A DNA stretch of 64,000 nt from an uncultured Candidatus Saccharibacteria bacterium (lineage in GTDB: Bacteria; Patescibacteriota; Minisyncoccia; Phycocordibacterales; UBA9973), in NCBI GenBank assembly GCA_964544225.1, contig CAZIZK010000004.1:883-64882 (forward strand), given 5' to 3'. The position numbers and the translations under genes are program-made. The notes below the pieces were generated by a model. The model saw only the letters and a list, made by a program, of their open reading frames with translations. It had not been told where the DNA came from and ran no database searches. How positions within the stretch are numbered: the stretch's first letter is position 1; each line of letters opens with the position of its first letter. Below, one piece after another: positions 37,392-63,910 of the stretch.

Positions 37392-37397
37392 GTATCT

Positions 37398-41828: not shown

Positions 41829-41856
41829 AACACGATTATAGACTTTTTCCGAGGAT

Positions 41857-41893
41857 ACGTCAAAGAAAACCCGGCCCGTGCTTAAGGCACGGG
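41857..41893. terminator. strong bidirectional terminator
   Basis: aaaACCCGGCCCGTGCttaaGGCACGGGCCGGGTttt (15-bp stem). Confidence 0.75.
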
Positions 41894-41923
41894 CCGGGTT
41901 TTCTGTTTTATATTTCAATATTA

Positions 41924-42847
41924 TTAGTGAGCTACTGCATGACCATGGTCTGCCTTTGGGCGGAGCTGGCGTATCAATAGTATGATCACAAGTATCAGGA
42001 AGAACACACATATCCACTCGAACACTGTGTCTGGTAGAAATGAATCTGTTCCAGATACTGACAATGCACTTAGACTGTTCGCTGATAGGCTTGTACCCTG
42101 TACAGAGTTAGAAGCTACATCGTTTGAAGTTGTGTTTGTATTGTTCGAAGTTGTTGTAGTATTACTTACAGTCGAGTTCTTTGTTGTAGAACTTACATTA
42201 CTATTTGTGTTACTTGTGTCCTTTGTAGAACCTGACACTGTACCACCTGTATTACCCCCAGTACTGCCACCTGTATATATAACCGGTGATGTAGTGATAG
42301 ACATAGTGTTACCTGTAGCACGGCCAGCCTGGTTGTCAGCCACAAGACGGAAGTAGTATGTAGTGTTTGGTAGCAAACCACTAATATTGTTCGTTACAGT
42401 ACCGTTACTTATTGACTGTGTTGTTGTCTGACGATTCATGTTCTGATCAGTACCGTATTGGAAGAATGCTGTTGTCGGAGTTGTACTTTGTACATAACCT
42501 GACAATTTCATAGAGTATGATGCCACCTGTTCTGGGTTGTTTGTTGTTACAGATGCAATAGTCGGATTGTTGTATCCGTTATTACCGTTGTTGTTACCAT
42601 TATTATAATTGTTGTTACCATTGTAGTAGCCATTGCCATTTGTATTCGAGTTGCCACCATTCCATGTTGTCCATGAACCACCTGTATTGTAGAAGTTTAC
42701 AGAACTACCAGGTCCAGAGCCAGTACATGTAGGTACTACTTCGTATTGGTCACAAATACCTGCATTTGCAGATGAGGCAAATCCAAATACTAGGGCCAAT
42801 GTTGCCACTGCCAAAAGTATTGAGTTTTTGTTTGATTTATTTTCCAT
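41924..42847 (-). CDS. secreted Fn3-like domain surface protein with Ser/Thr/Asn-rich stalk and C-terminal LPDTV-TM-basic tail (paralog A)
   Basis: Signal peptide MENKSNKNSILLAVATLALVFGFASSANA. Asn/Gly-rich region. Fn3-like YSMKLSGYVQSTTPTTAFFQYGTDQNMNRQ...ISGLLPNTTYYFRLVADNQAG. S/T/N-rich stalk. ...LPDTVFEWICVFFLILVIILLIRQLRPKADHGHAVAH. Confidence 0.6.
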   Translation of the reverse strand: MENKSNKNSILLAVATLALVFGFASSANAGICDQYEVVPTCTGSGPGSSVNFYNTGGSWTTWNGGNSNTNGNGYYNGNNNYNNGNNNGNNGYNNPTIASVTTNNPEQVASYSMKLSGYVQSTTPTTAFFQYGTDQNMNRQTTTQSISNGTVTNNISGLLPNTTYYFRLVADNQAGRATGNTMSITTSPVIYTGGSTGGNTGGTVSGSTKDTSNTNSNVSSTTKNSTVSNTTTTSNNTNTTSNDVASNSVQGTSLSANSLSALSVSGTDSFLPDTVFEWICVFFLILVIILLIRQLRPKADHGHAVAH

Positions 42848-42853
42848 GGGGGT

Positions 42854-42883
42854 ATTATAGCATACTTAATACCCTTTTGTCAA
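42854..42883 (-). promoter_or_regulatory. consensus promoter TTGACA-18-TATAAT, 6 nt upstream of ATG (leaderless-type) for 41924..42847
   Basis: Minus strand: cTTGACAaaagggtattaagtatgcTATAATacccccATG. Confidence 0.6.
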
Positions 42884-42912
42884 GCCCTGTCGCCTATAGG
42901 CGACAGGGCTTG
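42881..42912. promoter_or_regulatory. perfect 14-4-14 palindrome overlapping the -35 box in a divergent promoter region (candidate operator)
   Basis: CAAGCCCTGTCGCCtataGGCGACAGGGCTTG; left arm overlaps the minus-strand -35, right arm ends in TTGACC facing the plus-strand gene. Confidence 0.5.
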
Positions 42913-42953
42913 ACCACCCTTATTTTATAGGCTTTTTATGCTATACTACCCCT

Positions 42954-43385
42954 ATGGAAGAAATAGATAGATACGATAAAAAAGACAAGAAAGTACTAGT
43001 ATTTGGTGTATTCGACACCCTACATGCAGGGCACACATTCTTCATAGATGAGGCTTCAAAGTATGGAACCAGCCTTGTAATAGTCGTTACCGAGGATGAA
43101 GTAGTGAACAAGATGAAGGACCACTTCCCTAGGAACAACTTGTTCGAAAGAATGCAAACTCTAAAGAAAGCTTACCCAAAGGCCAAAGTCCGCGTGGGTG
43201 ATATGCGCATGGGTGCCTGGACTCCAATATACGAGGAGAAGCCCGATATAGTGGTATGTGGCTATGACCAGGACAAACTATTCCGATCACTTCGTGACCC
43301 CTCAAAGAAATACATATTTAAACGTGTTCAACTAGATAAAAGTCTGAAGAAGACAAAGCTCCATTCGAGTATCATAAACAAGTAG
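42954..43385 (+). CDS. cytidylyltransferase-like nucleotidyltransferase (HIGH-motif family)
   Basis: KVLVFGVFDTLHAGHTFFIDEA (HxGH), 143 aa. Confidence 0.6.
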   Translation: MEEIDRYDKKDKKVLVFGVFDTLHAGHTFFIDEASKYGTSLVIVVTEDEVVNKMKDHFPRNNLFERMQTLKKAYPKAKVRVGDMRMGAWTPIYEEKPDIVVCGYDQDKLFRSLRDPSKKYIFKRVQLDKSLKKTKLHSSIINK

Positions 43386-43455
43386 CCTCCCCTACTTCAT
43401 AACTTTATAAATAAGGTGTACAATAGTACCTGTACTAATTAATTTTTAATATTTT

Positions 43456-44679
43456 ATGCAAAAAAATCCTTTTGAGAATGCAATGATGCAGTTAGCACGT
43501 GCGCAAGCTGTGCAGAGTTTTAATCCAGAGTTCATGTCACGCCTTGCCCAACCTGAACGCGAGATCCGTATTTCTATCCCAGTAACAATGGATGATGGTA
43601 GTCTGAAGATGTACGAAGGTTACCGGGTAGAATACAACTCGGCTCGTGGCCCATACAAAGGCGGTATCCGATTCCACCAAGACACTGACATACATGAAGT
43701 GAAGGCCCTCGCCTTCTGGATGGCACTAAAGTGTGCTGTGGCCAATATCCCTATGGGTGGTGGTAAAGGTGGTATCACAGTGGACCCGAAAGTTCTTTCA
43801 AAGACAGAATTGGAAAAATTGTCTCGTGGTTGGGCCCGCATGATGGCTCCGAACATTGGCCCAGATAAAGATGTGCCTGCTCCAGATGTAAACACTACTC
43901 CAGAGATAATGACTTGGATGAATGACGAGTACATGAGTATCACAGGCGAGAAGACTGGCGCAACATTTACCGGCAAGCCATTGGACAAGGGTGGCTCTGA
44001 AGGCCGTGGCCCTGCTACAGGACTAGGAGGCTTCTACGTATTCGACGCTATCCGTGGCAAATACGGTGTACCTGACAATTCAAAGATAGTGATCCAAGGC
44101 TTCGGCAACGTAGGTGGTAACGCATTTGAAATATTTGAAAATGCTGGCCACACTATAGTCGGTATATCCGACTCAAAGAGTGCAATATACAAGGCCGACG
44201 GTATCACCTATGCCGAGGCAACATCTTGGAAGAAGGAACATGGCAGCTTCATAGGGTTTCCAGGGGCTGTGGAATTATCCAACATGGAACTACTCGAACA
44301 AGAGTGTGATGTATTGATCCCCGCAGCGTTGGAAAACCAGATCACTGAAAATAATGCTAACAATGTAAAAGCAAAGTTCATACTCGAACTTGCAAACGGC
44401 CCTATCACTCCAGAAGCCGACGATATACTACTATCACGTGGTATCCCAGTTGTGCCAGACATATTGGCCAACTCTGGTGGTGTAACAGTGTCTACATATG
44501 AATGGGAACAGAATCTAAAGGGTGAGCACTGGACTGAAGCTGAAGTCTTTGCAAAGTTGAAGGAGAAGTTGGATACCGAATCTAAACTCATCGATGACAA
44601 ATCCCGCACCCTATCTACCGACTTGCGCCGTTCTGCATTCATCGTAGCACTCGAGCGTATTGAGAAAGCTACAAAATAA
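43456..44679 (+). CDS. Glu/Leu/Phe/Val dehydrogenase family (glutamate dehydrogenase)
   Basis: KGGIRFHQD, NIPMGGGKGGITVDP, GFGNVGG NAD-binding loop. Confidence 0.9.
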   Translation: MQKNPFENAMMQLARAQAVQSFNPEFMSRLAQPEREIRISIPVTMDDGSLKMYEGYRVEYNSARGPYKGGIRFHQDTDIHEVKALAFWMALKCAVANIPMGGGKGGITVDPKVLSKTELEKLSRGWARMMAPNIGPDKDVPAPDVNTTPEIMTWMNDEYMSITGEKTGATFTGKPLDKGGSEGRGPATGLGGFYVFDAIRGKYGVPDNSKIVIQGFGNVGGNAFEIFENAGHTIVGISDSKSAIYKADGITYAEATSWKKEHGSFIGFPGAVELSNMELLEQECDVLIPAALENQITENNANNVKAKFILELANGPITPEADDILLSRGIPVVPDILANSGGVTVSTYEWEQNLKGEHWTEAEVFAKLKEKLDTESKLIDDKSRTLSTDLRRSAFIVALERIEKATK

Positions 44680-44706
44680 TTATTAATATAAAAAATAAAA
44701 ATCCCG

Positions 44707-44742
44707 AAGCGAAAGCTTGCGGGATTTTTTTAATTTGTGTTA
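44707..44742. terminator. bidirectional terminator
   Basis: aaaATCCCGaagcgaaagcttgCGGGATttttttaat. Confidence 0.65.
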
Positions 44743-44750
44743 GGTGTGGC

Positions 44751-45428
44751 CTAACTTTGTTTCAAAAGGAAATAGTGGTTTGCTTTGTATGTGCATGGAA
44801 TTTTGGTATGACGCAGATTATAATGCATCTTTCCATCAGATTTTTTACCCATACTTTCCAGGTATATCACATAAATGTGCGGACCTGTTTCGTCGGTCAA
44901 TTCGCAGTAACCGATGTTCAGGTTCTCCTGACCATCTTTTTCTACCTCATTAATCAATACACCCTCACCATAAGTATGATCCAAGATTACATCGTGTGCA
45001 GTCACCAATATTTCATCTAATGATGATAGGCTGCATACATCGAATTTATTGATTATATCAATATCCGACAAACCAGGGTTAATTATTTTATAATGCTCGT
45101 AGGATTGTGGTGCATCTGAAATATTAAAATCTTTTGTGCCGATTTGCATAGCAACAAGACGCTTTGCAATAATAGGATCAATGGAATCAATAACGTGAAA
45201 TTCGTTTGTTATTGTCTGAAAAAAGAAAGGTTCTACTATTGCGGCATCACGGATATATTCACCTATTTTTTTAAACTGAACTTTTTTGTTTTCGGTCAGT
45301 CCAATGTGGATTTGGGAGATTGCTTCCCTGTTTTCAGTAATTCTTTTTTCAAGCATCGCTATCTCGTTCAAGCGATTTCCAACCACTCTATCAAGGATAA
45401 GTGGTTTTACATTTTCTTGTGTGCTCAT
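44751..45428 (-). CDS. hypothetical protein
   Basis: Start taken at ATG 45428 (MSTQENVKPL...). The track ORF begins 16 codons upstream at a TTG. No motif recognised. Confidence 0.35.
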   Translation of the reverse strand: MSTQENVKPLILDRVVGNRLNEIAMLEKRITENREAISQIHIGLTENKKVQFKKIGEYIRDAAIVEPFFFQTITNEFHVIDSIDPIIAKRLVAMQIGTKDFNISDAPQSYEHYKIINPGLSDIDIINKFDVCSLSSLDEILVTAHDVILDHTYGEGVLINEVEKDGQENLNIGYCELTDETGPHIYVIYLESMGKKSDGKMHYNLRHTKIPCTYKANHYFLLKQS

Positions 45429-45533
45429 ACGTATTTTATTTTTTGTTTTGCTACACATTAACACATATTTATACAAAAGTAAATGGGTAAATTTTTAGTA
45501 AATACACACGGTCTGGTATAATACCCGGATGGA

Positions 45534-45653
45534 TCCCGTTAGAAGTCATGTATGTTATTCAGGCTACGGGAAGAATTTTACAGAAATAGTTATTTTATAT
45601 TTTATTATTTAATTTATGTACGATAATCTAAAGATTATCTACTTCTAACGGGA
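45534..45653. mobile_element. MITE-like element copy 1 (120 bp; 12-bp TIR TCCCGTTAGAAG/CTTCTAACGGGA; TSD TGGA), abutting the purH start codon
   Basis: ggaTGGA|TCCCGTTAGAAGtcatg...ctaaagattatctaCTTCTAACGGGA|TGGAaaaac. The purH ATG is formed by the terminal A of the element plus TG of the duplicated TGGA. Confidence 0.65.
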
Positions 45654-47140
45654 TGGAAAAACAAATCAAAACAGCATTAATATCAGTATTTAATAAAGAT
45701 GGCCTCGATGATATTATCCGACTCTTGGACAAAAGTGGGGTCAAAATTATCTCTACAGGTGGCACAGCCGATTTTATCAAAGGCCTAGGTGTAAGTGTGA
45801 CAACAGTAGAAAGTGTCACTGGCTTCCCTTCAGTTTTCGGTGGGCGTGTTAAAACTTTGCAACCACAAATATTTGGCGGAATTCTAAATCGTCGCGACAA
45901 TGCCGATGATATGAAGGAAAAGGCTGAACACAAGATAGAAGATATTGATCTGGTAATAGTGGACCTGTACCCATTCTTTGAAACATTAAAGGCTGGCGGA
46001 ACAGAAGAAGAGATAATTGAAAAGATCGATATAGGTGGAGTGTCGCTGATACGTGCAGCTGCAAAGAATTTTAATGACGTAGTGGTAGTCCCTTCAAAGA
46101 ACCAATACAGCTATCTGAAAAATATTCTAGATGGTGGCACAGTTACAACACTTGAACAACGTAAACACCTAGCTTCAACTGCATTCGAGGTAACAGGTGG
46201 GTACGATATGACTATCTGGTCATATTTTAGTGGAAGTGCGCTTCGCTATGGTGAGAACCCGCATCAAAGTGGCCAGTTCATGGGTGATATGAATAAAGTA
46301 TTCAACATACTGCAAGGTAAAGAACTTTCATACAACAACCTGCTGGACGCAGATGCTGCAATACGCTTAATAAAGGATTTCAATATGCCTGCATTCGCAA
46401 TATTGAAGCATACCAATGCCTGCGGTTGCGCAACTGGTAATATGAGTACATTGGAGCTTTTGAAGAAGGCATATACTACTGACCCAGTGTCTGCATTTGG
46501 TGGCATACTAGTAACCAATCAAAAGGTAGATGCCGACACGGCAAAATATTTGGTAGAAGAAGTTAAATTATTCTTCGAATTACTTATCGCCCCCGAGTTT
46601 ACACCTGAGGCTTTGGAAATATTGAGCAAGAAGACCGATGTCCGCGTATTGAAACTCAACGATTTCGAACTCCCTATGGGTGAGATACGCACATGTCTCA
46701 ATGGCTATCTTGCACAAGACCGTGATGCACAAACCGAAACTGCGGAGAACTTCACCACAGTTACAAAGCGTGCACCAACTGAACAGGAAGTAAGTGATAT
46801 GGTAATAGGTGCAACTATAGCAAAACACTTGAAGTCTAACTGTGTAGTAATAGTAAAAGACGGCAATATGGTAACTATGGGTGCAGGACAAGTGTCACGC
46901 GTAGATGCATTGAAGAATGCATTGGAAAAGGCAAAAGGCTTCGGCCTCGAAGTTGCCGGTGGCATACTTGCTTCGGAAGCATTCCTTCCTTTCCCTGACT
47001 GTGTAGAAATAAGTGGCTCCGCTGGCGTCACCGCTGTGGTACAACCAGGTGGTAGCAAGAAGGACCAGCTATCTATCGACAAATGTGATGAAATGAATAT
47101 GGCTATGGTAACAACCGGCTTCCGACATTTTAAACATTAG
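45653..47140 (+). CDS. purH: bifunctional AICAR transformylase / IMP cyclohydrolase
   Basis: MGS-like N-domain (ALISVFNKDGL...GGTADFI), AICARFT domain; 495 aa. Confidence 0.95.
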   Translation: MEKQIKTALISVFNKDGLDDIIRLLDKSGVKIISTGGTADFIKGLGVSVTTVESVTGFPSVFGGRVKTLQPQIFGGILNRRDNADDMKEKAEHKIEDIDLVIVDLYPFFETLKAGGTEEEIIEKIDIGGVSLIRAAAKNFNDVVVVPSKNQYSYLKNILDGGTVTTLEQRKHLASTAFEVTGGYDMTIWSYFSGSALRYGENPHQSGQFMGDMNKVFNILQGKELSYNNLLDADAAIRLIKDFNMPAFAILKHTNACGCATGNMSTLELLKKAYTTDPVSAFGGILVTNQKVDADTAKYLVEEVKLFFELLIAPEFTPEALEILSKKTDVRVLKLNDFELPMGEIRTCLNGYLAQDRDAQTETAENFTTVTKRAPTEQEVSDMVIGATIAKHLKSNCVVIVKDGNMVTMGAGQVSRVDALKNALEKAKGFGLEVAGGILASEAFLPFPDCVEISGSAGVTAVVQPGGSKKDQLSIDKCDEMNMAMVTTGFRHFKH

Positions 47141-47198
47141 ACCTCTCCTTATTTAAAAACTTTACCCAAAATGAACGATCGTCGATATCAGGTAAAAT

Positions 47199-47231
47199 AA
47201 AAAAAATCCCGAACATCAGTCCGGGATTTTC
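47199..47231. terminator. bidirectional terminator
   Basis: aaaaaaaTCCCGaacatcagtCCGGGAttttc. Confidence 0.6.
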
Positions 47232-47245
47232 AATTTGTTTTTTGT

Positions 47246-47533
47246 TTACATGTTTATGGCACGCATGAATTCCTCCTTCGAAGAAAACAATGTGCCGAAA
47301 AATACAAACATTCCTACAACCAAACTTATAATTGAACCGCCAACAAGAGCAACTTGGTCTTGTGTGGAAGCACGATTAAAATCGGCTGCAAAACTTGGAA
47401 AGTATGTGCTTGCACACATGTAAATTAGGAATGCGCCCAATGCCAGAGCAAAAGCTCTGAATAAGAAAGGTGCAACATGGTCAACGATAGTTTCGATGAC
47501 ACTGAAAACGATTTTTTTAAATTGAATGTTCAT
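47246..47533 (-). CDS. small membrane protein, hypothetical
   Basis: 95 aa, two TM helices. Confidence 0.35.
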   Translation of the reverse strand: MNIQFKKIVFSVIETIVDHVAPFLFRAFALALGAFLIYMCASTYFPSFAADFNRASTQDQVALVGGSIISLVVGMFVFFGTLFSSKEEFMRAINM

Positions 47534-47720
47534 GATGTTTTTTTGTTAGTTGGTTTAGCAGAAAGGATATAAATCCCCTCAACTAAACCAACTAAAAACA
47601 TCATCTTTCAAACAACTTAACTTTAGTATATTATAGCACAATATATGCCTATTTGTCAAGTAAAAATACGTTGATAAATAAGGGTTTAATTGGCTTTTAT
47701 AGGTATGATATAATGAACCA

Positions 47721-50396
47721 ATGCAAAAGAAAAATAATACAAAAACTAGTAAAAAACCAAAGAAAGAATCTGTTCGCCTAGTGCCACATATCAAGCCTGT
47801 TAAATACACACTAAAATTGAAGCCGGACTTAGAATCTTTTACCTTCGAAGGTAATGAGGTGATAGATATTGTGATAGACAAGGCTGTGAGTGAGGTAACT
47901 CTGCACTCAAAAGATTTAGATATCACAACTGTAGAAGTAACAAGTGGCAAGGCTTCACAATTTGCAAATAAAATTAAATACAATGAAAAGGCTGAGACAG
48001 CCACATTTACTTTCAAGAACAACATTCCGAAGGGAAAGTTAAAATTAAAAATTATTTTCTCAGGAATTATTAGCGAAGGATTGCGAGGATTCTATCGCAG
48101 TCGCTACACCCTCGATGGAAAGGTAAAGCATATTGCAACAACTCAGTTCGAAGCTACCGATGCACGTAGGGCCTTCCCCTCTTTCGACGAGCCGGCTCAC
48201 AAAGCAATTTTCGACCTATCGCTCATTATCCCTGGTACTCATACAGCAATATCAAACACTTTGCCAACAAAGATAAGTGAACACGAAGGTGGATACAAAG
48301 TAATCGAATTCGCATCTACTCCAAAAATGTCTACATACCTACTGGCATTTATAATCGGCGAATTTGAATTTGTGGAAGGGTACGCTTCTTCGGGGAAACA
48401 TTCTTCTAAAAATCGTTTATCCCTACCTCGTCCCGAGGGCGAGGCGCGCGCCCACACCTACGATTTTGATAAGAACATTTCCCCTACAAAAACACTCGTT
48501 AGAGTCTACACAACCGCTGGTAAAAAGCACCAGGCAAAGTTTGCCCTCGATGTAGCTATCAAGTCGTTGGAATTCTACAATGATTATTTCGGTATTCCCT
48601 ACCCACTTCCGACACTGGACCTCATTGCCCTACCGGACTTTGAGTCCGCTGCCATGGAAAACTGGGGCGCAGTTACATTCCGCGAGACAGCATTGCTCGT
48701 AGACGATGAACACACTTCATTTGCCAACAAGCAATGGGTAGCGATAGTTATCGCACACGAATTGGCACACCAATGGTTCGGCAACTTGGTTACTATGCAC
48801 TGGTGGACAGACTTGTGGCTCAACGAAGGCTTTGCCTCATACATGGAATACCTATGTACTGACCACATGTTCCCTGAATGGAAAGTCTGGGATCTATACC
48901 TTGCCGAGCGTTACTCACTAGCACTACGCCTGGACGCACTTGCTAACTCGCACCCTATCGAAGTCGAAGTTCACCACCCAAACGAGATCAATGAAATATT
49001 CGACATGGTGTCATATGCAAAAGGCTCGGCGGTGATACGTATGCTTGCGGAATACCTGGGCGCAGACACTTTCAAGAAAGGCTTGCAACACTACATGAAG
49101 AAGCACAGCTATGGCAACACTGTTACCATGGACCTATGGGATGCATTTGAAAAGGCAAGTAAAAAGCCAGTAAAGAAAATGATGCGCGAGTGGACAGGCC
49201 GTACAGGTTACCCACTGCTTAGTTTAGATAAAAATAAAGTAACTCAAGAAAGGTTCTTCTCGAGTCGTGTGTCTAAAGAGAATAATAAGGAGAAGACTAC
49301 TTGGCAGATACCTCTTTCATACAAAGATGGTGACAATACAAAGAAAGTTCTAATAGATAAAAAGTCTACAAATATTGTAGGTAAAAATATTGGCAAGTTA
49401 AATACTGGCGAAGTGTCTATGCTACGCGTAAAGTATGACGAAGCTACAATAGCCCGCCTAAAGTCTGAGATATCTTCTGGCACAATGAGTGTACATGACA
49501 GGCTAGGTATTGCCCGTGATATCTTTGCACTAGCTGAGGCAGGCTATACTAGTGCCACAGTCGCTATGGACTTTGCCCAATCATTCAAGAACGAGACCGA
49601 GTATATAGTCTGGGCAGAACTTGCCAGTGGTATCGACAAAGTATACAGCCTGATAGCCGAAGAAAGTTGGGCAGATAATTACAAGAAATATGCTTTGCAA
49701 CTATTCTCGCCTCTTGCACACCGTATGGGCTGGCACGCAAAAAGTGCAAGTAATACCGACACATTCCTACGCAACCTGGCCCTATCACATGCGGCACTTT
49801 ATGGCGATGACTTGATAATTAAATATGGCAAGAAATTATTTAAGGAATCTGGAAAGACAAAGATCCCTGCCGACATCCGAAGTGTTGTATATGGAATTGT
49901 AGCCCGCGATGGTAAAGAGACTGATTGGAATAAATTCAAAACTATGTACAAGTCTGCCACTCTAGATGAAGAGCGCGACAGATGTGGCCGAGCACTTGCA
50001 CAGTTCCGCGACAAGACACTGTTAGCAAAGACACTTACATTTGCAATCTCAAAAGAAGTTCGCATGCAAGATACGCCATTTATGATAGGCTCTGTATGGG
50101 GTAATAGTAAAGGTCGCGACTTGGCATGGCAATTTGTCCAACATAATTGGCCGACACTGCTGAAGAAATATGGCGAGGGTGGACACTTCCTAGGGCGATT
50201 ACTATCACCACTAGGTACACACACCAAAGTATCTGATGCAAAAGCTATCAAAATATTCTTCAAGAAGAATGAGGCCCCAGGGGCACAAAGAACTATCGAA
50301 CAGTCACTGGAACGTATATATTCCAATGCTTCATGGATTGCCTCGGACAAGAACAACATAAAAAAGTGGCTAGAGAAGTGGAATGAATCCCGTTAG
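47721..50396 (+). CDS. pepN: aminopeptidase N (M1 metallopeptidase)
   Basis: GAMENWG, HELAHQWFGNLVTMHWWTDLWLNEGFASYME (HEXXH-18-E), ERAP C-terminal helical domain; 891 aa. Its last three codons and stop (E-S-R-*) lie inside the left TIR of MITE copy 2. Confidence 0.9.
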   Translation: MQKKNNTKTSKKPKKESVRLVPHIKPVKYTLKLKPDLESFTFEGNEVIDIVIDKAVSEVTLHSKDLDITTVEVTSGKASQFANKIKYNEKAETATFTFKNNIPKGKLKLKIIFSGIISEGLRGFYRSRYTLDGKVKHIATTQFEATDARRAFPSFDEPAHKAIFDLSLIIPGTHTAISNTLPTKISEHEGGYKVIEFASTPKMSTYLLAFIIGEFEFVEGYASSGKHSSKNRLSLPRPEGEARAHTYDFDKNISPTKTLVRVYTTAGKKHQAKFALDVAIKSLEFYNDYFGIPYPLPTLDLIALPDFESAAMENWGAVTFRETALLVDDEHTSFANKQWVAIVIAHELAHQWFGNLVTMHWWTDLWLNEGFASYMEYLCTDHMFPEWKVWDLYLAERYSLALRLDALANSHPIEVEVHHPNEINEIFDMVSYAKGSAVIRMLAEYLGADTFKKGLQHYMKKHSYGNTVTMDLWDAFEKASKKPVKKMMREWTGRTGYPLLSLDKNKVTQERFFSSRVSKENNKEKTTWQIPLSYKDGDNTKKVLIDKKSTNIVGKNIGKLNTGEVSMLRVKYDEATIARLKSEISSGTMSVHDRLGIARDIFALAEAGYTSATVAMDFAQSFKNETEYIVWAELASGIDKVYSLIAEESWADNYKKYALQLFSPLAHRMGWHAKSASNTDTFLRNLALSHAALYGDDLIIKYGKKLFKESGKTKIPADIRSVVYGIVARDGKETDWNKFKTMYKSATLDEERDRCGRALAQFRDKTLLAKTLTFAISKEVRMQDTPFMIGSVWGNSKGRDLAWQFVQHNWPTLLKKYGEGGHFLGRLLSPLGTHTKVSDAKAIKIFFKKNEAPGAQRTIEQSLERIYSNASWIASDKNNIKKWLEKWNESR

Positions 50397-50505
50397 AAGC
50401 CACGATCACGATATTATGGTAATATCTATATATGAAAGAACATTTTAAAATTATTAATTTAACAAGTAAGGCACGTATATTGATCGTGACCTGCTTCTAA
50501 CGGGA
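50388..50505. mobile_element. MITE-like element copy 2 (118 bp; same 12-bp TIRs; TSD TGAA), between pepN and the next gene
   Basis: gaaTGAA|TCCCGTTAGAAGccacg...cgtgacctgCTTCTAACGGGA|TGAAcatac. The internal part has its own inverted repeat (cacgatcacgatat...atattgatcgtg). Confidence 0.65.
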
Positions 50506-51041
50506 TGAACATACACCCAATATTTGTGCACTTCCCTATAGCGTTACTAACCATATACGCTATGATGGAATTATTAAAATTCAAAAAAGTAAAAGAACTT
50601 CCATACTTCTTTTACACTAAGGCTATCATCCTTATCATCGGTGCACTTAGTTCATCTGTAGCATTGCAAACTGGTGAGATGGCTGAAGACGCTCTAAACA
50701 GCCCCGAATTACATAACCTTGTAGAAAAGCACGCTTGGTTTGCAGGATTTGCATCATACATATTTGCCGTACTTGCTATTGTGTATGCCGTATCATGGGT
50801 AAATAAATCAGATTTTGCAAAGAATATATTATCAAAAGTTACAAATATTGGCATAATCAACAAGCTTTGGATATTTGTATCGAGCATAGCAGAAAAGATA
50901 CTAGCAAGTGACTTATTAATGATAACCCTTGCCATAGTAGGCCTCGCAACTATCACTATTACAGGTGCACTCGGTGGCGCTATTGTATACGGCCCAAATA
51001 TAGACCCAATAGTACAGATCATATACAACTTGGTAATGTAA
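50505..51041 (+). CDS. DUF2231-like membrane protein
   Basis: MNIHPIFVHFPIALL N-terminal motif plus 4 TM; 178 aa. Confidence 0.45.
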   Translation: MNIHPIFVHFPIALLTIYAMMELLKFKKVKELPYFFYTKAIILIIGALSSSVALQTGEMAEDALNSPELHNLVEKHAWFAGFASYIFAVLAIVYAVSWVNKSDFAKNILSKVTNIGIINKLWIFVSSIAEKILASDLLMITLAIVGLATITITGALGGAIVYGPNIDPIVQIIYNLVM

Positions 51042-51047
51042 TATGAA

Positions 51048-51130
51048 TCCCGTTAGAAATTATTTATGTTATATTACTACTATTATCAAATTAATTACGA
51101 AAGTCTAAAGACTTTCTATTTCTAACGGGA
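51048..51130. mobile_element. MITE-like element copy 3 (83 bp; TIRs TCCCGTTAGAAA/TTTCTAACGGGA; TSD TGAA), abutting the rsmE start codon
   Basis: ataTGAA|TCCCGTTAGAAAttatt...cgaaagtctaaagactttctaTTTCTAACGGGA|TGAAgatac. The sub-terminal hairpin gaaagtCTAAAGacttt mirrors copy 1's gataatCTAAAGattat with compensatory changes. Confidence 0.65.
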
Positions 51131-51822
51131 TGAAGATACATCGATTCATAACTGCATATGAAATACGTGACGGTTCTGTAACCATACAAGACCCAGAACT
51201 AGTACACCAATTCCGCAATGTTTTAAAGTTCAAGACTGGCGAAGTCGTCATGCTTACAAATGATTCAATGCTCGAGGCCACTGTACGTATATCACATATG
51301 TCAAAAGACACTATCGACTTTGAAGTAATCGATGAAGGTGTAAACAACAACGAGCCAAAGAATAAAGTAACACTTTATCTAGCCATATTAAAGCGCGAGA
51401 ACTTCGAGCTAGTTGTCCAAAAAGCTACCGAGATAGGTATCGATAAAATAGTGCCGATCATTACAAAGAACACTGTAAAAACAGGCTTACGTTATGACCG
51501 CTTGGAAAAAATTGCAAAAGAAGCTTCCGAACTATCTGGCCGTAGTACAGTGCCTACTATTACCGAAGCCATCGAATACACAGAGGCAATTGAGCAAGTA
51601 AAAGATATTAAAGACAATATAATATTTGATATTTCAGGCAAAAAACTATCAGAAGTAAATATCAAACCAGCCAATGTATTTGTGGGGCCTGAAGGTGGCT
51701 TTACCCAAGACGAAATAAATCAAGCAAAAGATGCCAGTTTTACCGTCGCCTCCCTAGGCACCCTCACCCTCCGAGGCGAAACCGCCGCAATAGTGGCAAG
51801 TTACATATCTATAAGTAGTTAA
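51130..51822 (+). CDS. rsmE: 16S rRNA (uracil1498-N3)-methyltransferase
   Basis: MKIHRFI..., PUA-like N-terminus, SPOUT core ...GPEGGFTQDEI.... Confidence 0.8.
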   Translation: MKIHRFITAYEIRDGSVTIQDPELVHQFRNVLKFKTGEVVMLTNDSMLEATVRISHMSKDTIDFEVIDEGVNNNEPKNKVTLYLAILKRENFELVVQKATEIGIDKIVPIITKNTVKTGLRYDRLEKIAKEASELSGRSTVPTITEAIEYTEAIEQVKDIKDNIIFDISGKKLSEVNIKPANVFVGPEGGFTQDEINQAKDASFTVASLGTLTLRGETAAIVASYISISS

Positions 51823-51865
51823 TTTTAACAGTAAGGTTATAATTTGTGTTACAATTTATCTAATT

Positions 51866-52747: not shown

Positions 52748-52779
52748 AAGTTAGTAAAAGTTTTTAAAAAAAATGCATT

Positions 52780-53454: not shown

Positions 53455-53532
53455 ACAAAGATTGTAACACAATACATGACACAAAAAGAAAAGGCCTCTT
53501 TATGAAGCCTTTTTTACTAAAAATATAACGTC

Positions 53533-54534: not shown

Positions 54535-54605
54535 TTTTTTTGTTTTTTCATACATTACTACTAATTTTAACTTTTGTCAAATAGAACTCATTACTGATAT
54601 ACTAT

Positions 54606-57794: not shown

Positions 57795-57796
57795 TA

Positions 57797-57831
57797 ATAA
57801 AACAGCCCCGACATAGTCGGGGCTGTTTTAT
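57797..57831. terminator. bidirectional terminator dnaE / 57831 gene
   Basis: aaaACAGCCCCGACatagTCGGGGCTGTttt. Confidence 0.7.
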
Positions 57832-58403: not shown

Positions 58404-58589
58404 AGTGTTGCGGTTGTGCTCCGCAGAACTCATGTCTGGATTGGTATTACCTTACCTTTCGAGGGGTAAAATAAAAAGCCCTTATATATAATCAATGTGA
58501 TTGATAACATATCAGGGACTCCTATATAGTATCACAAACCAACATAAAAGTCAATAGTTATACTACATATTTTAGGTGTGTCAAATATA

Positions 58590-58740
58590 AAAAACCCTTA
58601 TTTTATAAGGGTTTTTTATCTATTATGGTTTGACAAAATATCTTAAAAATTGTCTAATCAGCCTATTTTATAAGGGTTTTACAGGTTTTTGACAAAAAGT
58701 ACCTATTGTCCTATAAAAACCCTTATTTTATAACGAAATT
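58590..58740. repeat. cluster of three CCCTTATTTTATAAGGG-type palindrome / half-palindrome repeats (first copy is a terminator-like hairpin) downstream of secA
   Basis: aaaaACCCTTATtttATAAGGGTttttt (58590-58617), ctattttataagggtttt (58664-58681), aaaaacccttattttataacg (58717-58737). Two TTGACAAAA motifs sit in between. Confidence 0.55.
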
Positions 58741-58743
58741 AGC

Positions 58744-61218
58744 CTATTCATTGATTCCGTGGCACTTCTTGTACTTCTTGCCGGATCCACAAGGACACGG
58801 GTCATTGCGCCCCACTTTTGGTCCTTCATTACGCTTTGTTTTTGCATCTGGCTCCTCCTTTCCACTGGTACTTAGGATCAATTTTGGTGTTTCCTCTACC
58901 ACTTCAGCTACAGGATCTGGGCCAACATTCATTGTTTTTACCAGGGACACCACCTGTTCACGGAACATAGCCTCCATTTCCTTGAATAAATGCAAGCCCT
59001 CCTTCTTGTACTCGATCAATGGTTCCCTTTGGCCATAGGCACGCAAGTTTACCGAGCTACGAGTATAATCCATGGTCTCTAGGTGTTCTACCCATAGGTT
59101 ATCAGTAACATGTAGTGCTATACGGCGAAGTGTCTCTAGGAACACCCCTTCTCCGAATGCTTTCTTCTTTTCTTCTGCTATACCAACTATCTCTGGGTAA
59201 TCAGTGGCTAGGTCTTGAATAAAGGCTTCCAATTCAGGTGCTTCACCTAAAAGCATTATCTTACGTCGTGCATATATAGTATTGCGCTGTTGGTTCATGA
59301 CATTGTCGTATTCCAGTGTATGCTTACGAGCGTCAAAGTTAAAGCCTTCGATCTTCGCCTGAGCATTCTCGAGTGACTTGTTGATCATGCCGTTCTGGAT
59401 AGGCTGGTCTTCGGGTATGCCGAACTTGCCCATCATAGTCTTTATACGATCACTACCGAATACTCGCATTAGATCATCTTCGAGTGACACATAGAACTGT
59501 GTCTCACCTGGGTCACCCTGACGGCCGGCACGTCCACGAAGCTGGTTGTCGATACGGCGAGCTTCATGGCGCTCGGTACCTAGGACGAACAATCCACCAA
59601 GATTCTTGATCTCTTCATATGCTTCTTCATTGTATGGCACACCGCCGAGTTTTATATCCACTCCGCGCCCAGCCATGTTGGTGGCAATAGTTACAGCACC
59701 ACGCTTGCCGGCATTGGCAGTGATGGCACCTTCGCTCTCGTGATTCTTTGCATTTAGTACTATATGTGGAACGCCCGCTTCTGTTAGATATGCAGATAGT
59801 AGTTCGTTGCGCTCTATAGACACTGTACCTATCAATACAGGCTGACCCTTTTCGTTCAGTTCTTTTACCTTTTGGGCGATAGCCTTGAACTTACCCTTCT
59901 CGGTTTGGTATATAAAGTCATTTCTATCGATACGAGCGATGGGTCTGTGTGTAGGTACTACTGCTACGTCGAGGCCGTACACCTTGGCAAACTCTTCTTT
60001 TGAAGTTTCGGCTGTACCTGTCATACCAGAAAGCTTTGTATAGAATCGGAAATAGTTCTGGAAAGTAATAGATGCTACAGAGCGTGTCTCCTTTTGGATC
60101 TTTGCACCTTCCTTCGCCTCGATAGCTTGGTGAAGGCCCTCGCTCCATCGGCGGCCTGGTTGCATACGGCCAGTAAATGGGTCCACTATCATTACCTCGC
60201 CATCCTTTACAACATAGTCCTTGTCCTTCTCGAAAAGTGCGCGGGCACGGACAGCAGTCTCTAAGTGGTGAACATATTTAATACCCTTCTCGGTATAAAT
60301 GTTGGAAATTCCAAGTAGAGTCTCGGCTTTTGTGATGCCAGAGTCGGTCAGTGATATAGCCTTTAGCTTCTCATCAACTGTATAGTCTGTGTCACGAGAT
60401 AGCTCTTTGGAAATATTGGCGAACTTGTAGTACAAATCCTCAGACTCTTCCGCCTCAGAAGATATGATAAGTGGTGTACGAGATTCGTCTATCAATATAG
60501 AGTCGACCTCGTCGACTATCGCATAGTGGTGACCACGCTGAGATATGTCATTTACACTACGAGCTAGATTATCCTTTAGATAGTCAAAGCCAAATTCGTT
60601 ATTAGTACCATATGTAATATCCGCGGCATATGCTTCACGGCGAGTACATGGGCGCAAACATTCGTAGCGAACTTTAAAAGCTCCCTCCTCGCTACCATCA
60701 TCATCGCGCGATACATGTGTATCATCATATAGGAAAGATGCTCCAACAGAGTTCACCACACCTACACTCATGCCGAGCATGGAGAACACTGGGCCCATCC
60801 ACACAGCATCACGACGTGAAAGATAGTCGTTCACTGTTACCACATGCACACCTTTATTTGTCAGTGCATTTAAATACGCTGGCAGTGTTGCCATCAATGT
60901 CTTACCTTCACCTGTACGCATCTCGGCGATCATGCCACGGTGCAATACGATACCTCCAATAAGCTGAACATCATAGTGCCTAGTACCAAGAAAACGCAGT
61001 GAAGCCTCACGCACCAATGCATAAGCTTCCGGCAACAGACTATCTAGGCTCTCCCCCTCACCTAATCTTGCTTTTAATTTATTTGTATAATCCTTGAAAT
61101 CTGAATCTGCCAATGATTTCATATCAGACTCGAGCGTATTTATACGCTCTATTATAGGCTTTGTTTCCTTTAATATTTTTGTTGTTTCGTCTCCGAAAAT
61201 TGATTTAAATAATGCCAT
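58744..61218 (-). CDS. secA: preprotein translocase subunit SecA
   Basis: DEAD-like motor domains. C-terminal Zn finger [14 protein letters not shown]. 824 aa. Confidence 0.95.
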
Positions 61219-61243
61219 AGTTGTTGTATTCTACCATAAAAAC

Positions 61244-61269
61244 AAAATCCCCGATAGAGAGGGGATTTT
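61244..61269 (-). terminator. terminator after small Lys-rich gene
   Basis: aaaaTCCCCgatagagaGGGGAtttt. Confidence 0.6.
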
Positions 61270-61298
61270 GTTAAAAAACTAGAACTCGAAGGGTGCTA

Positions 61299-61409
61299 TT
61301 ATGCGCGCTTCTTTGTTGTCTTCTTTGCTGCTTTCTTAACAGTCTTCTTTACAGTTTTCTTAACTGCCTTTTTTACTGTCTTCTTAGCTGCTTTCTTTTT
61401 TGCTGCCAT
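61299..61409 (-). CDS. 36-aa lysine/alanine-rich basic protein (histone-H1-tail-like repeats), absent from the ORF track
   Basis: MAAKKKAAKKTVKKAVKKTVKKTVKKAAKKTTKKRA. Own terminator downstream. Confidence 0.4.
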   Translation of the reverse strand: MAAKKKAAKKTVKKAVKKTVKKTVKKAAKKTTKKRA

Positions 61410-61724
61410 ATATTTTTTAAAAATTATTTTTTAAAGACGTGTGATACTACGACCTTACAAAAAGATTAAAAATATTTTTGTAAAATTTTTTTAATCACAC
61501 TTACATATATATTATCTTACATATTGAATACAACTGCAATATTTTTTTCAATAAAAGTGTGGATAACTTTCCAATTTTATTTTTTTGTAAAAAATTATAA
61601 AATTGAGAATCCCGTACTAAAATTTTACAAACTGAAATTTTACTTTAAAAAAAAATTTATAAAATAAAAAAATAATGTAATAAGAAAAGTTTTATTAAAT
61701 TTTTAGTATGGGATATAAATAGTA

Positions 61725-61762
61725 TTAATAAAAAAGAAAAACTCCAGCTTGCGCCGGAGTTC
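61725..61762 (-). terminator. terminator of RNase P RNA
   Basis: Minus strand: aACTCCggcgcaagctGGAGTttttctttttt. Confidence 0.55.
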
Positions 61763-61764
61763 TT

Positions 61765-62092
61765 CATATAATGACAGAGAATAATAAGCCGAATTCTGTA
61801 CCTCAGTAGATATTTATCTGGGCCTACAATTACTTGCAAGCTCTAGCGATTCTTCCCTCGATTACTCTTAGGACACGATCTTGCACACATGTAAGGATTT
61901 AGCCGTTTCACTTTTGTATTTCTACAAACTTCTCCCTAACGGGAGTCTAGCCTTTCGGCATTGACGTCACTGCTCGCACCTCTACCCTCACGGGCGATGG
62001 GTATTACCCACTACAATCCTCCTCTTACGAGGGTGTGTTCGGACTTTCCTCACCAAGTTTCCTTGGCGCATCTACTTCTTTTCTGTCACAAA
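61765..62092 (-). ncRNA. rnpB: RNase P RNA (bacterial type, divergent P4)
   Basis: Minus strand contains GAGGAAAGUCCGAAC (P4 5' strand) and, about 265 nt downstream, ACAGAAUUCGGCUUAU (P4 3' strand). GAA/UUC replaces the usual GGG/CCC, a compensatory pair. AGGGUAGAGG resembles CR-II AGGGCAGG. P1 is gacaga/tctgtc. A TATAAT -10 sits at + 62094-62099. Confidence 0.75.
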
Positions 62093-62093
62093 C

Positions 62094-62122
62094 ATTATAC
62101 CAGAAGAAAAGGTGCTTGACAA
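62094..62122 (-). promoter_or_regulatory. rnpB promoter (TTGTCA-17-TATAAT, minus strand); the same TTGACAA palindrome is also a plus-strand -35 (TTGACA-17-TATACT)
   Basis: + strand ggtgcTTGACAAccaccatactatttgaTATACTc. Minus strand TTGTCAagcaccttttcttctggTATAATg. Confidence 0.45.
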
Positions 62123-62346
62123 CCACCATACTATTTGATATACTCTTTGTGTGAGTTAATGATTCCAATAATTATTAAAAACAAATGCCTCACAAAACCC
62201 CCGCAAGGGGGTTTTGTGTTGGGTGGCGTTTTATCTATAGATAATATATAATATTTAGGCAGTCGCTTTTGTGTTTTCAGTCAGCGGCTGCGCTCACATA
62301 GGCATTTGTGTTGGGGTTAGCACCCGCTGACTAAAGGCACAAAAAC

Positions 62347-62377
62347 AAAAAGACCTCCGATTCCTCGGAGGTCTTTT
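62347..62377. terminator. bidirectional terminator after the 62388..63764 gene
   Basis: aaaAGACCTCCGAttccTCGGAGGTCTtttt. Confidence 0.7.
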
Positions 62378-62387
62378 TGTTTTTGTA

Positions 62388-63764
62388 TTAGTGATGCGCT
62401 ACGTGTGCAGACTTCTTCTTTGTTACTGTACGAACTATCATAGCTATAACAAGAATGATCAGTATCAGTATCAGCCAACCAAAGAATGTGTTCGGGAAGA
62501 AACTTCCACCTGATAGACCTACCGCTGCTGATAATGATGAAGAATCTGAATTCGAATTTGTTGTATTACTTGTTACAGTATTTGAAGATGAACTTGCATC
62601 CGCATTGTTAGTACCAGAGAAAGCACTTTTCACTTTATTGTAGATACGGTTAGTTGTACCTGTACTTGTATTACTACCACCGTTTGTACCATACATATAA
62701 TCATAAGTACGATATGTTGTACCACCACCTGTCGGATAGTATGGAGGGTTTGGTGGGTAATAAGGTGGGTTCGGTGGGTAGTAAGGATTTGGGTTTGGAT
62801 TGTATCCCCCATTGTTTGTAGTAATAGTTATATAACTTGTATCACTACTTGTACTGTTCGAAGCATACAATGTGTAAGTGTTTGTATTGGCTGATGGGTA
62901 CACAGCATAACTGGATGCTGATAGTGCATTGTAACCAGATGGTGACAGTGTCACATTTGTACAGTTGGTTGTATTCCATGACAAGTAAACAGTGTTACCA
63001 CGTGTTATGTAGTATGAATTTGCATTGAATGAACTAATGTAACACTTGTTACCTGTTGGTGTTGGTGGTGTGTAAGTACCAGCAAGTGTAGTAAATGACA
63101 GGACTGTAGTTGCACGTGTTGTGCCGTTGGCATTGACCCCTACTGCACGATAGTAATACGTAGTCAGAGGTGACAAGCCAGACAAGTTCGCTGAATAGTT
63201 ACCCGAGTTTGAACTTACAGAAATATTTGATGTAGTACTAGACAATGAGACACTGCTTGTGCCGTATTCGAAATACACAGAACCAAGATTATTGTTCATG
63301 TTGTAGAAGCCATTGAGTGTTGCAGAATATGAAGCAATATTTATAGCTGATGCTGTGCTCATAACAGGCATAACACTACTTGTAGTCTTTGTAGTAAAAG
63401 TAATTGTTGGATTACCCCATGTAGAACCGATACCGTTTGTACCTACAGCCTGTACATAATATGTTGTACCAGGTGTAAGGCCCGAGATTGTTACGCTATA
63501 GTTACCTGCTGTAAGTGCTGGCACTGTTGCAAGTGGTGACAAAGTACCCAAGATTGGAGATGTACCGTAGTCAAAGAATATCTGGGTCATACCTGATCCC
63601 CCATCGTTGTAGAAACCATTGAGTGTTGCTGATGTGGTAGTAACAGCTGTAGCAGAAGAAGTGCTCATAATAGGTGCAGTTGCAGCAAAAGTTGTGCCTG
63701 CAAAGCCAAATACGGCCACCAATGTAGCGATTCCAAGTATTAGTTTGTTTTGTATGTTTTTCAT
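62388..63764 (-). CDS. secreted two-Fn3-domain surface protein with Ser/Thr-rich stalk, PNPPYY proline repeats and C-terminal FPNTF-TM-basic tail (paralog B)
   Basis: Signal peptide MKNIQNKLILGIATLVAVFGFAGTTFA. Two Fn3-like repeats (...ATLNGFYN...FDYGTS...GLTPGTTYYVQAVGTNG... and ...ATLNGFYN...FEYGTS...GLSPLTTYYYRAVGVNANG). NPNPNPYYPPNPPYYPPNPPYYP. ...FFPNTFFGWLILILIILVIAMIVRTVTKKKSAHVAHH. Confidence 0.6.
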   Translation of the reverse strand: MKNIQNKLILGIATLVAVFGFAGTTFAATAPIMSTSSATAVTTTSATLNGFYNDGGSGMTQIFFDYGTSPILGTLSPLATVPALTAGNYSVTISGLTPGTTYYVQAVGTNGIGSTWGNPTITFTTKTTSSVMPVMSTASAINIASYSATLNGFYNMNNNLGSVYFEYGTSSVSLSSTTSNISVSSNSGNYSANLSGLSPLTTYYYRAVGVNANGTTRATTVLSFTTLAGTYTPPTPTGNKCYISSFNANSYYITRGNTVYLSWNTTNCTNVTLSPSGYNALSASSYAVYPSANTNTYTLYASNSTSSDTSYITITTNNGGYNPNPNPYYPPNPPYYPPNPPYYPTGGGTTYRTYDYMYGTNGGSNTSTGTTNRIYNKVKSAFSGTNNADASSSSNTVTSNTTNSNSDSSSLSAAVGLSGGSFFPNTFFGWLILILIILVIAMIVRTVTKKKSAHVAHH

Positions 63765-63816
63765 ATGTATTTATATGCCTATCTATACAGACGGGCCCTA
63801 TTAAATTAACTTACAG

Positions 63817-63846
63817 ATTATAGCATACTAGACCCCATTTTGTCAA
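63817..63846 (-). promoter_or_regulatory. consensus promoter TTGACA-18-TATAAT for 62388..63764, near-identical to the one at 42854..42883
   Basis: Minus strand: cTTGACAaaatggggtctagtatgcTATAATctg, then a 50-nt leader. Confidence 0.55.
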
Positions 63847-63910
63847 GTACTATCATTGACAAATGCCCTAAAATATGCTAATATACAGGCAAACAATAAT
63901 ACATCGAAAA

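Follow-up and report, generated by a model that had tools for sequence, protein, structure and literature searches.

Two predicted surface proteins of a Paceibacteria-like genome share a lineage-specific C-terminal module that may be a retained membrane anchor

The window analysed here is a 64-kb stretch of DNA (GenBank assembly GCA_964544225.1, contig CAZIZK010000004.1) from a bacterium of the candidate phyla radiation (CPR), with a GC content of about 40%. Two of its open reading frames (ORFs), 41924-42847 and 62388-63764, both on the minus strand and named A and B here, translate as complete ORFs. Their protein products end in the same kind of tail, a module of about 50 residues with a P-x-T motif, a hydrophobic helix and a basic cytoplasmic end. 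The closest named homologs of A, B and their neighbours belong to Candidatus Nomurabacteria, Paceibacterota or the Patescibacteria group. Together with five CPR-typical T4SS_pilin paralogs encoded in the window, this places the fragment in a CPR genome of the Paceibacteria class. The parts of the two genes are as follows, with fibronectin type III written as Fn3 and AlphaFold2 as AF2.

41924-42847, minus strand: gene A, 307 residues; its syntenic ortholog is P0206 in the related locus L048
42761-42847, minus strand: signal peptide of A, residues 1-29, read from the sequence; an N-terminal helix in AF2
Residues 30-94 of A, minus strand: disordered N/G/Y-rich region (AF2 disorder at 26-90)
42293-42559, minus strand: single Fn3-like domain of A, residues 97-185, a beta-sandwich in AF2
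42083-42280, minus strand: S/T/N stalk of A, residues 190-255, disordered in AF2 (190-265)
41927-42082, minus strand: tail module of A, residues 256-307, ANSLSALSVSGTDSFL-PDT-VFEW-ICVFFLILVIILLI-R-QLRPKADHGHAVAH, with the P..W core at 42014-42034
62388-63764, minus strand: gene B, 458 residues
63684-63764, minus strand: signal peptide of B, residues 1-27, read from the sequence; an N-terminal helix in AF2
63390-63674, 63087-63368 and 62811-63044, minus strand: three beta-sandwich domains of B in AF2, residues 31-125, 133-226 and 241-318
62544-62807, minus strand: stalk of B, Pro/Tyr-rich and then S/T/N-rich, residues 320-407 (AF2 disorder at 320-425)
62391-62543, minus strand: tail module of B, residues 408-458, SSSLSAAVGLSGGSFF-PNT-FFGW-LILILIILVIAMIV-R-TVTKKKSAHVAHH, with the P..W core at 62475-62495

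The N-termini of the two proteins, MENKSNKNSILLAVATLALVFGFASSANA and MKNIQNKLILGIATLVAVFGFAGTTFA, resemble signal peptides as read from the sequence, and AF2 places helices there. Protein B matches the Pfam families Pur_ac_phosph_N (32.9 bits, cutoff 30) and fn3 (24.8 bits, cutoff 25); the Fn3-family matches of A are weaker and below threshold. AF2 models built from family alignments reach pLDDT (predicted local distance difference test) values of 80-95 within the Fn3-like domains of both proteins, and Foldseek relates B to tandem FnIII structures with an E value of about 1e-10. The profile matches and the predicted beta-sandwiches thus assign these domains to the Fn3-type fold. The stalks are rich in small and polar residues, with Ser, Thr, Asn and Gly together making up a fraction of 0.78 in A and 0.56 in B. 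AF2 predicts C-terminal helices at residues 275-295 of A and 427-451 of B. Translation, Pfam, AF2 and Foldseek therefore agree with the original prediction, made from the letters of the window, that both ORFs have a signal peptide, Fn3-like domain(s), an S/T/N-rich stalk and a C-terminal tail. Its description of them as Fn3-repeat proteins suits B, with three domains in AF2, and does not suit A, which has one. This organization supports A and B as probable secreted surface proteins that are anchored at the C-terminus.

The two proteins are barely related outside their common elements, as had been claimed. They can be related only through their signal peptides, a single Fn3 domain and the tails (28% and 39% identity). 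Tail-to-tail comparison gives E = 4e-5, and the geometry of the two tails is the same: P272-D-T and R293 in A, P424-N-T and R445 in B, with a spacing of 21 from Pro to Arg in each. The tripartite tail that had been proposed for both proteins is thus borne out. A hidden Markov model (HMM) of the tail has exactly two matches across the ORFs of the window, A (E = 2.5e-24) and B (E = 5.9e-19).

The spread of the tail is wide. A profile of 53 positions, made from 24 tails (alignment A1), was searched against 1.84 billion representative proteins and matched 1,541 cluster representatives at E <= 1e-3, 252 of them at E <= 1e-10. A itself is recovered (P0170, E = 4.8e-13). In the best 150 of the 1,541 matches the tail lies at or near the C-terminus of carriers that are 61-1160 residues long. 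The pattern is also C-terminal in 31 of the best 120 homologs of B, and in A. At the DNA level, the core F-G-x-G-x-F-h-P-x-T-h-x-G-W was turned into a degenerate pattern with 20 fixed bases, for which we estimate about 0.3 chance matches, and was scanned over 185,579 species with one genome each. It matched 42 genomes, all of them CPR metagenome-assembled genomes (MAGs), and all 42 matches are in frame at the C-terminal end of an ORF. Every one of these ORFs that is complete within its locus has a signal-peptide-like N-terminus. Other proteins with the tail motif, which the original prediction had proposed to look for, are therefore plentiful. Some of the matched MAGs are labelled 'uncultured Saccharibacteria'; their PolA is 62-76% identical to Paceibacteria PolA, so that the label is probably generic. 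With 1,541 profile matches and a presence in CPR genomes only, the tail appears to be a specific conserved element and not a random hydrophobic end.

The consensus of the tail reads N-L-x-A-x-S-x-F-G-x-G-x-F-[LFM]-P-x-[TS]-h-h-[GEQ]-W, and is followed by Arg and a short cytoplasmic end. A juxtamembrane stretch of small and aromatic residues precedes P-x-[TS], and a helix of fixed length, 18 residues, follows it, with the invariant Trp at its fourth position. Position statistics come from 172 tails picked by a regular expression that itself demanded P(0) and W(+6); both residues are invariant in alignment A3. In the 172 tails, F(-2) is found in 90%, T/S(+2) in 96% and R(+21) in 91%, with [LFM] at -1, hydrophobic residues at +3 and +4, and G/E/Q at +5. 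Fourteen hydrophobic residues lie between +5/W(+6) and R(+21). A and B fit this geometry exactly. The residue that follows Thr, at +3, is Leu in 50%, Phe in 23%, Ile in 16% and Val in 5% of the 172 tails, together 94%, and never Gly, Ala or Asn; the motif reads PDTV in A and PNTF in B. The module is matched by no Pfam-A or NCBIfam model, and full-text literature searches found no paper describing the tail motif or a CPR sorting signal. The module thus appears to be an unannotated, lineage-specific variant within the known class of C-terminal anchor or sorting-like domains.

The cytoplasmic part has a median length of 17 residues and reaches 69, and some tail proteins carry cytoplasmic extensions of 35-70 residues. 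His-rich ends are present in 38% of tails, A and B included, so the HAVAH/HVAHH termini that had been called unusual are a recurrent type. Other subfamilies keep PLKHA, (N/D)LPx or YHDRGI. At 6794-8496 on the plus strand of the window, two adjacent membrane proteins have His/Asp-rich cytoplasmic N-termini, MTTDHEHDDHGHGSG (with a Band_7/SPFH match) and MSGGHDDHGHDDH, which echo the His-rich cytoplasmic C-termini of the tail proteins.

The module is joined to many kinds of ectodomain. Pfam analysis of 108 tail carriers gives Fn3-like domains in 41, DUF11 in 40 and TIG in 5, plus immunoglobulin (Ig) domains, and finds no enzyme domains among these 108. Several tail proteins can co-occur in one locus or genome. 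The subfamily of A consists of small proteins of 100-330 residues with low-complexity, N/T/S/Y-rich ectodomains that cannot be aligned with each other, and only the tail is kept, as LTALSLxGSGSFMPSSxWQWL...ARM..RKxEHHEVHTVxxH. Within the ortholog group P0004-P0011, mean pairwise identities are 0.59 (ectodomain), 0.29 (stalk), 0.81 (juxtamembrane stretch), 0.52 (helix) and 0.91 (cytoplasmic end). This end, the terminal ...EYHDRGI, is the most conserved segment of the protein. Three types of tail gene are syntenic across genomes: the A-type locus lies between a cytidylyltransferase (CTP_transf) gene and IMPDH, the B-type locus beside the RNase P RNA, secA and dnaE, and a DUF11-type locus beside tsaE and polA. 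From these conserved positions, the A-type, B-type and DUF11-type tail genes appear to be core genes.

Promoters and transcript signals near A and B, as read from the sequence, are located at the following positions.

42854..42883, minus strand: promoter A, TTGACA, 18-nt spacer, TGc, TATAAT; 6 nt separate the -10 box from the ATG
63817..63846, minus strand: promoter B, TTGACA, 18-nt spacer, TGc, TATAAT; almost invariant in the related locus L046
63765..63816, minus strand: leader of B from the -10 box to the ATG, 52 nt, conserved in the ortholog, no obvious Shine-Dalgarno sequence
47630..47659, minus strand: third promoter of this perfect layout (cTTGACAAA...TGCTATAAT, 18-nt spacer), which precedes a 95-residue membrane protein (47246-47533, minus strand)
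63856..63884, plus strand: divergent promoter back to back with promoter B, TTGACA, 17-nt spacer, TGc, TAATAT
42879..42914, no strand assigned: perfect palindrome of 36 nt (18 + 18, no gap) in the interval between A and its divergent neighbour 42954-43385; it overlaps the -35 box of A
41864..41904, no strand assigned: GC-rich 18-bp hairpin flanked by A-runs and T-runs, 20 nt past the stop codon of A

The promoters of A and B had been described as near-identical consensus promoters with 27 of 31 positions in common. Each is indeed a perfect consensus, and the identity is 26 of 31. The A, B and 47659 sites each score 12/12 in their hexamers and carry TGn, and only four 12/12 sites exist in the 64 kb. 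With TTGACA, a spacer within 16-19 nt, TGnTATAAT and a gene downstream, all three have the makeup predicted for sigma-70 promoters of the extended -10 type. The elements that A and B have in common (cTTGACAAA, the 18-nt spacer, TGC and TATAAT) are those of the genome consensus. Related 'TATGnTATAAT' boxes occur upstream of many genes of the window, and the divergent promoter beside B is similar in style (TTGACAAAT...ATATGCTAATAT). The A ortholog in L048 keeps TTGACA, the 18-nt spacer, TGcTATAAT, 6 nt and the ATG, with a different spacer sequence. The coordinated expression that had been read from the shared promoter is thus not sustained. A regulator site common to A and B was also considered and rejected: the likeness of the spacers is lost in the A ortholog, the palindrome at A has no counterpart at B, and the inverted repeat at B, TTTGTCAA-N9-TTGACAAA, is formed by the two back-to-back -35 boxes of B and the divergent promoter. 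Neither promoter B nor the A ortholog carries this palindrome. Two Logan contigs, L001 and L002, stop within it, and an operator, a cruciform or an assembly hazard are possible readings.

High-level expression, also claimed before, is plausible for both genes. In L046, where the B protein is 72% identical, nucleotide identity is 84% in the B intergenic region, 73% in the B coding sequence and 77.5% in secA, and the stretch from the divergent -35 box to just beyond the -10 box of B is almost invariant. Because the promoters are near-perfect consensus sequences and that of B is better conserved than its coding sequence, strong and constitutive transcription from perfect extended -10 promoters is plausible for A and B. 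The hairpin 3' of A looks like a bidirectional intrinsic terminator, so that A would be monocistronic.

The leaderless-type layout proposed for A, with the ATG 6 nt after the -10 box, is seen and is kept in the ortholog. It is, however, recurrent in the window: TGnTAnAAT followed by 6-10 nt and a start codon is found at a dozen or more other genes, for example at 2527-2537 (minus), 26208-26218 (minus), 42937-42947 (plus), 47704-47714 (plus) and 41835-41863 (minus), and hardly any Shine-Dalgarno-like sequences are seen. Leaderless translation may thus be widespread in this genome. The A messenger RNA would then be leaderless like that of many other genes, by a habit of the genome that is not special to A. 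Full-text literature searches found no paper on leaderless genes in Patescibacteria/CPR.

An inverted-repeat element of 75-115 nt, ATCCCGTTAGAAG...CTTCTAACGGGAT, is present before three genes of the window (starts 45653, 50505 and 51130), and its copies are listed here.

45532-45655, 50386-50507 and 51046-51132, plus strand; also L046:13058-13142 and L016:891-1008 in related loci: copies of the inverted-repeat element

Four nucleotides, ATGR, are duplicated at both ends of the element, and its downstream arm ends at the main ATG. An upstream ATG just past the -10 box opens a leaderless short upstream ORF that starts with M[ND]PVR. The RNA would close with a stem of 13-14 bp (z = -3.4 to -6.2), and no Rfam family is matched at the gathering threshold. 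The PurH ortholog in L048 is without the element and has a plainly leaderless layout, so the element looks like an insertion similar to a miniature inverted-repeat transposable element, placed exactly at the start codons of leaderless genes, or like a translational switch.

Two features adjoin gene B. The gene divergent from it (63911-64000, plus strand) runs off the end of the window, and full copies are found at L046:393-1889 and L003:340-1824. They encode 494-498 residues with a Bacteroidota-style signal peptide and a type A sorting domain of the type IX secretion system (TIGR04183, 33 bits, cutoff 23). One would not expect such a gene in a CPR genome; three independent assemblies contain it, with its promoter back to back with that of B, and it may be a horizontal acquisition or host-related. 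On the other side, the RNase P RNA (RF00010, 110.8 bits) lies at 61769-62087 on the minus strand, between B and secA. Its promoter (62122-62094, minus strand) and a strong promoter on the plus strand (62116-62144) stand back to back; the latter is aimed into the 3' end of B, has no obvious ORF and could yield an antisense or small RNA.

An enzyme that might process the tails was sought in the window and around related tail genes. No TLxTC-type regular-expression match and no phmmer match to Staphylococcus aureus SrtA was found in any ORF of the window and 45 loci, a weak negative because SrtA is a distant probe. Pfam finds no sortase or exosortase in the window, which agrees with the earlier statement that no sortase is seen there. 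About 470 kb of loci around related tail genes (45 or more), searched with SrtA by phmmer, with the regular expression and through Pfam tables, likewise contain no sortase or exosortase. ORF 25632-26198 (minus strand) was considered as a mini-exosortase and rejected: its XrtF match is weak (17 bits, cutoff 90), Pfam gives nothing at E <= 10, and its only Cys, Cys117, is not conserved in 120 homologs. This ORF encodes a polytopic membrane protein of 188 residues in which GNxPYLRD and IPTLRK form an internal repeat. Of its 1,939 homologs, the best 120 are 69-98% identical; this seems to be a CPR membrane protein of very high conservation, with a spurious XrtF match. The recurrent neighbours around 42 tail genes (PolA, TsaE, PEMT/ICMT-like, PilB, DsbB-like and RuvB) were also rejected as processing enzymes, and reflect the synteny of one ortholog group instead.

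Taken together, A and B would be two core, probably abundant surface proteins of a Paceibacteria (Nomurabacteria-like) CPR bacterium. Each would be exported by its Sec signal peptide, its Fn3-type beta-sandwich domains would be kept off the membrane by the disordered S/T/N-rich stalk, and the lineage-specific C-terminal module would anchor it in the cytoplasmic membrane in a type I orientation. The module would stay on the mature protein as a standard plug that seats many different ectodomains in the membrane, and the short cytoplasmic peptide may be offered to a partner or ligand, e.g. a metal ion or a cytoplasmic or membrane protein. We give a probability of about one half to this reading, in which core, highly expressed surface proteins of Paceibacteria keep the tail as a type I anchor module whose cytoplasmic tip is functional. 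AF2 begins the helix immediately after P-x-T in both proteins, so that P-x-[TS] reads naturally as a helix N-cap, the Trp as an interfacial residue and the Arg as a stop-transfer signal in the models. The cytoplasmic end is under the strongest constraint of the whole protein in P0004-P0011 and in the subfamily of A, contrary to what would be expected of a sorting peptide that is thrown away. For a peptide destined for removal and degradation, positive charge would be enough, and its terminal sequence would have no need to be conserved. The conserved and sometimes long cytoplasmic ends therefore argue against such a fate. Several points weigh on the other side. A conserved cytoplasmic end could serve the recognition of a signal and then be cut off, and the tripartite layout, the preceding low-complexity linker and the many different passengers are hallmarks of true sorting signals. 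AF2 confidence is low in the juxtamembrane stretch. The search for a processing enzyme spanned the 64-kb window and short flanks around related loci. Sortases are reported for more than half of CPR genomes (PMC6744442).

The rival reading is what the original prediction had suggested, a true C-terminal sorting signal. A membrane-associated enzyme would cut at or near P-x-T and transfer the protein to peptidoglycan or lipid, with the helix and the end discarded; a CPR sortase of unusual specificity is one candidate, and an unrecognized protease of exosortase, rhombosortase or CPBP type, acting within the membrane or at its interface, is another. The motif, helix and basic residue indeed sit at the extreme C-terminus, always with a signal peptide at the N-terminus, on many non-homologous ectodomains and on what can be several proteins per locus or genome. 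The [LFM]-P-x-T core resembles LPXT, and the motif abuts the helix directly as in PEP-CTERM, PGF-CTERM and GlyGly-CTERM. The hydrophobic residue after Thr (P1') in 94% of tails, the lack of convincing NCBIfam sorting-domain matches to the tails, the window and about 470 kb of related loci in which no sortase or exosortase was found, the rejected XrtF-like candidate as the sole weak match, a reported sortase family that is patchy outside Microgenomates (PMC6744442), and cytoplasmic ends that are the best-conserved segment and in some proteins 35-70 residues long all speak against it, and we rank a sorting signal second, as possible but doubtful. Somewhat less probable, and tentative, is the idea that the module is the recognition signal of an undescribed, Paceibacteria-specific sorting or anchoring system. 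An enzyme or docking complex would then read F-G-x-G-x-F-L-P-x-T...G-W outside and the terminal peptide (His-rich, PLKHA, YHDRGI or NLPx) inside, and would cleave and attach, or organize, the major envelope proteins.

Surface-layer (S-layer) subunits or stalks would be a further role for A, B and their syntenic relatives, with the tail, processed or not, as the membrane pedestal of the lattice. Perfect consensus promoters with that of B better conserved than its coding sequence, core syntenic genes, fast-evolving ectodomains, and a parallel to the haloarchaeal S-layer glycoprotein (tandem Ig/Fn3-like domains, a Thr/Ser-rich stalk and a C-terminal helix) are all consistent with this role. Many tail proteins are tiny (100-200 residues), almost wholly disordered and ill-suited as lattice subunits, however, and there are several paralogous families and not one dominant protein, which makes it unlikely. 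The least probable of the explanations, and an improbable one, is an ordinary stop-transfer anchor without sequence-specific function, where the likeness of the tails comes from common descent and domain shuffling in one gene family. Most carriers are Fn3-like or DUF11 proteins, possibly of shared ancestry, and an N-cap, an interfacial Trp and a stop-transfer Arg are generic to transmembrane helices. The Pro and Trp are nevertheless invariant and the length from Thr to Arg is fixed while ectodomains have diverged beyond alignment, and the juxtamembrane stretch (0.81) and cytoplasmic end (0.91) exceed the folded domains (0.59) in identity.

The tail was also compared with half of a T4SS_pilin domain, and this reading was rejected (hhalign probability 2.5%). 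T4SS_pilin (PF18895) is found elsewhere in the window, where five consecutive paralogs of this CPR-typical family are encoded at 8922-12522 on the minus strand. One of them has 569 residues with a large ectodomain, so that the pilin domain would be used there as a C-terminal anchor; T4SS_pilin thus appears to give this genome a second type of anchor for surface proteins. A low-GC region (0.31-0.36) at about 33200-38800, with ORFs that lack Pfam matches, has tRNA-Asn (38747-38821) at its end; an integrated element or an island is a possibility.

Little is understood of how CPR bacteria assemble their envelope and attach to host cells, and most of their surface proteins are annotated as hypothetical. 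A lineage-restricted, portable anchor module that has no Pfam-A or NCBIfam model gives an HMM handle for listing the Paceibacteria surface proteome. It raises the concrete questions of whether the tail is retained or processed and what binds the conserved cytoplasmic tip. If it were a sorting signal after all, this uncultivated and very large lineage would have a sorting system not described before. The promoter and leaderless-start observations may aid gene-start calling and expression prediction in these genomes.

A comparison of the module with known anchors and sorting signals shows a shared architecture and different motifs. LPXTG/sortase substrates (TIGR01167, PF04203) are alike in the C-terminal site, the [L/F/M]-P-x-T core and the helix with a basic residue, and also in the N-terminal Sec signal, the low-complexity linker before the motif and the adhesin-like beta-sandwich carriers. 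The hydrophobic segment followed by positive charge that is expected of such substrates is present (18-residue helix; Arg in 91%; R293 and R445). The pentapeptide is not, as [LFM]-P-x-[TS] lacks Gly, Ala or Asn at P1'. To our knowledge, all known sortase classes cleave before Gly, Ala, Asn or Ser. The module differs further in that no spacer precedes the helix, a conserved segment of 14 residues lies upstream, the Trp is invariant, the helix length is fixed and the cytoplasmic ends are conserved and sometimes long, and no sortase is found nearby. The TIGR01167 model leaves full-length A and B unmatched and matches 2 of 24 tails, with a best E value of 0.11. PEP-CTERM, PGF-CTERM, IPTL-CTERM and other exosortase-type NCBIfam models are not listed for any of the 24 tails at E <= 10; the MYXO-CTERM model is listed for one at E = 1.6. 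By motif and by model, the tail thus fails the defining tests for LPXTG, PEP-CTERM, PGF-CTERM and IPTL-CTERM signals.

IPTL-CTERM and PEP-CTERM signals (TIGR04174 and TIGR02595) are alike in that a Pro/Thr motif is fused to a helix, and IPTLxxWG even has its Trp-Gly just inside the helix. Their register is P-T-L-x-x-W while that of our module is P-x-T-h-h-G-W, and they are found in Proteobacteria together with exosortases whereas the module belongs to CPR. Retained anchors such as Listeria ActA and the eukaryotic type I Fn3 receptors share the signal peptide, the ectodomain, the single helix and a short functional cytoplasmic tail with A and B. They differ in that they are not a conserved, portable module common to hundreds of families. 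The nearest architectural analogue is the S-layer glycoprotein of Haloferax volcanii, a substrate of the PGF-CTERM/archaeosortase A system. This glycoprotein combines a signal peptide, tandem Ig-like domains, a Thr/Ser-rich (O-glycosylated) stalk, a motif that abuts the helix and high expression. Its P-G-F motif is absent from the module, PGF-CTERM tails end in only a few basic residues and are not known to have conserved terminal peptides, and no archaeosortase/exosortase homolog is detected in our window and related loci. By analogy, A and B would work like type I anchored adhesins or S-layer-type glycoproteins.

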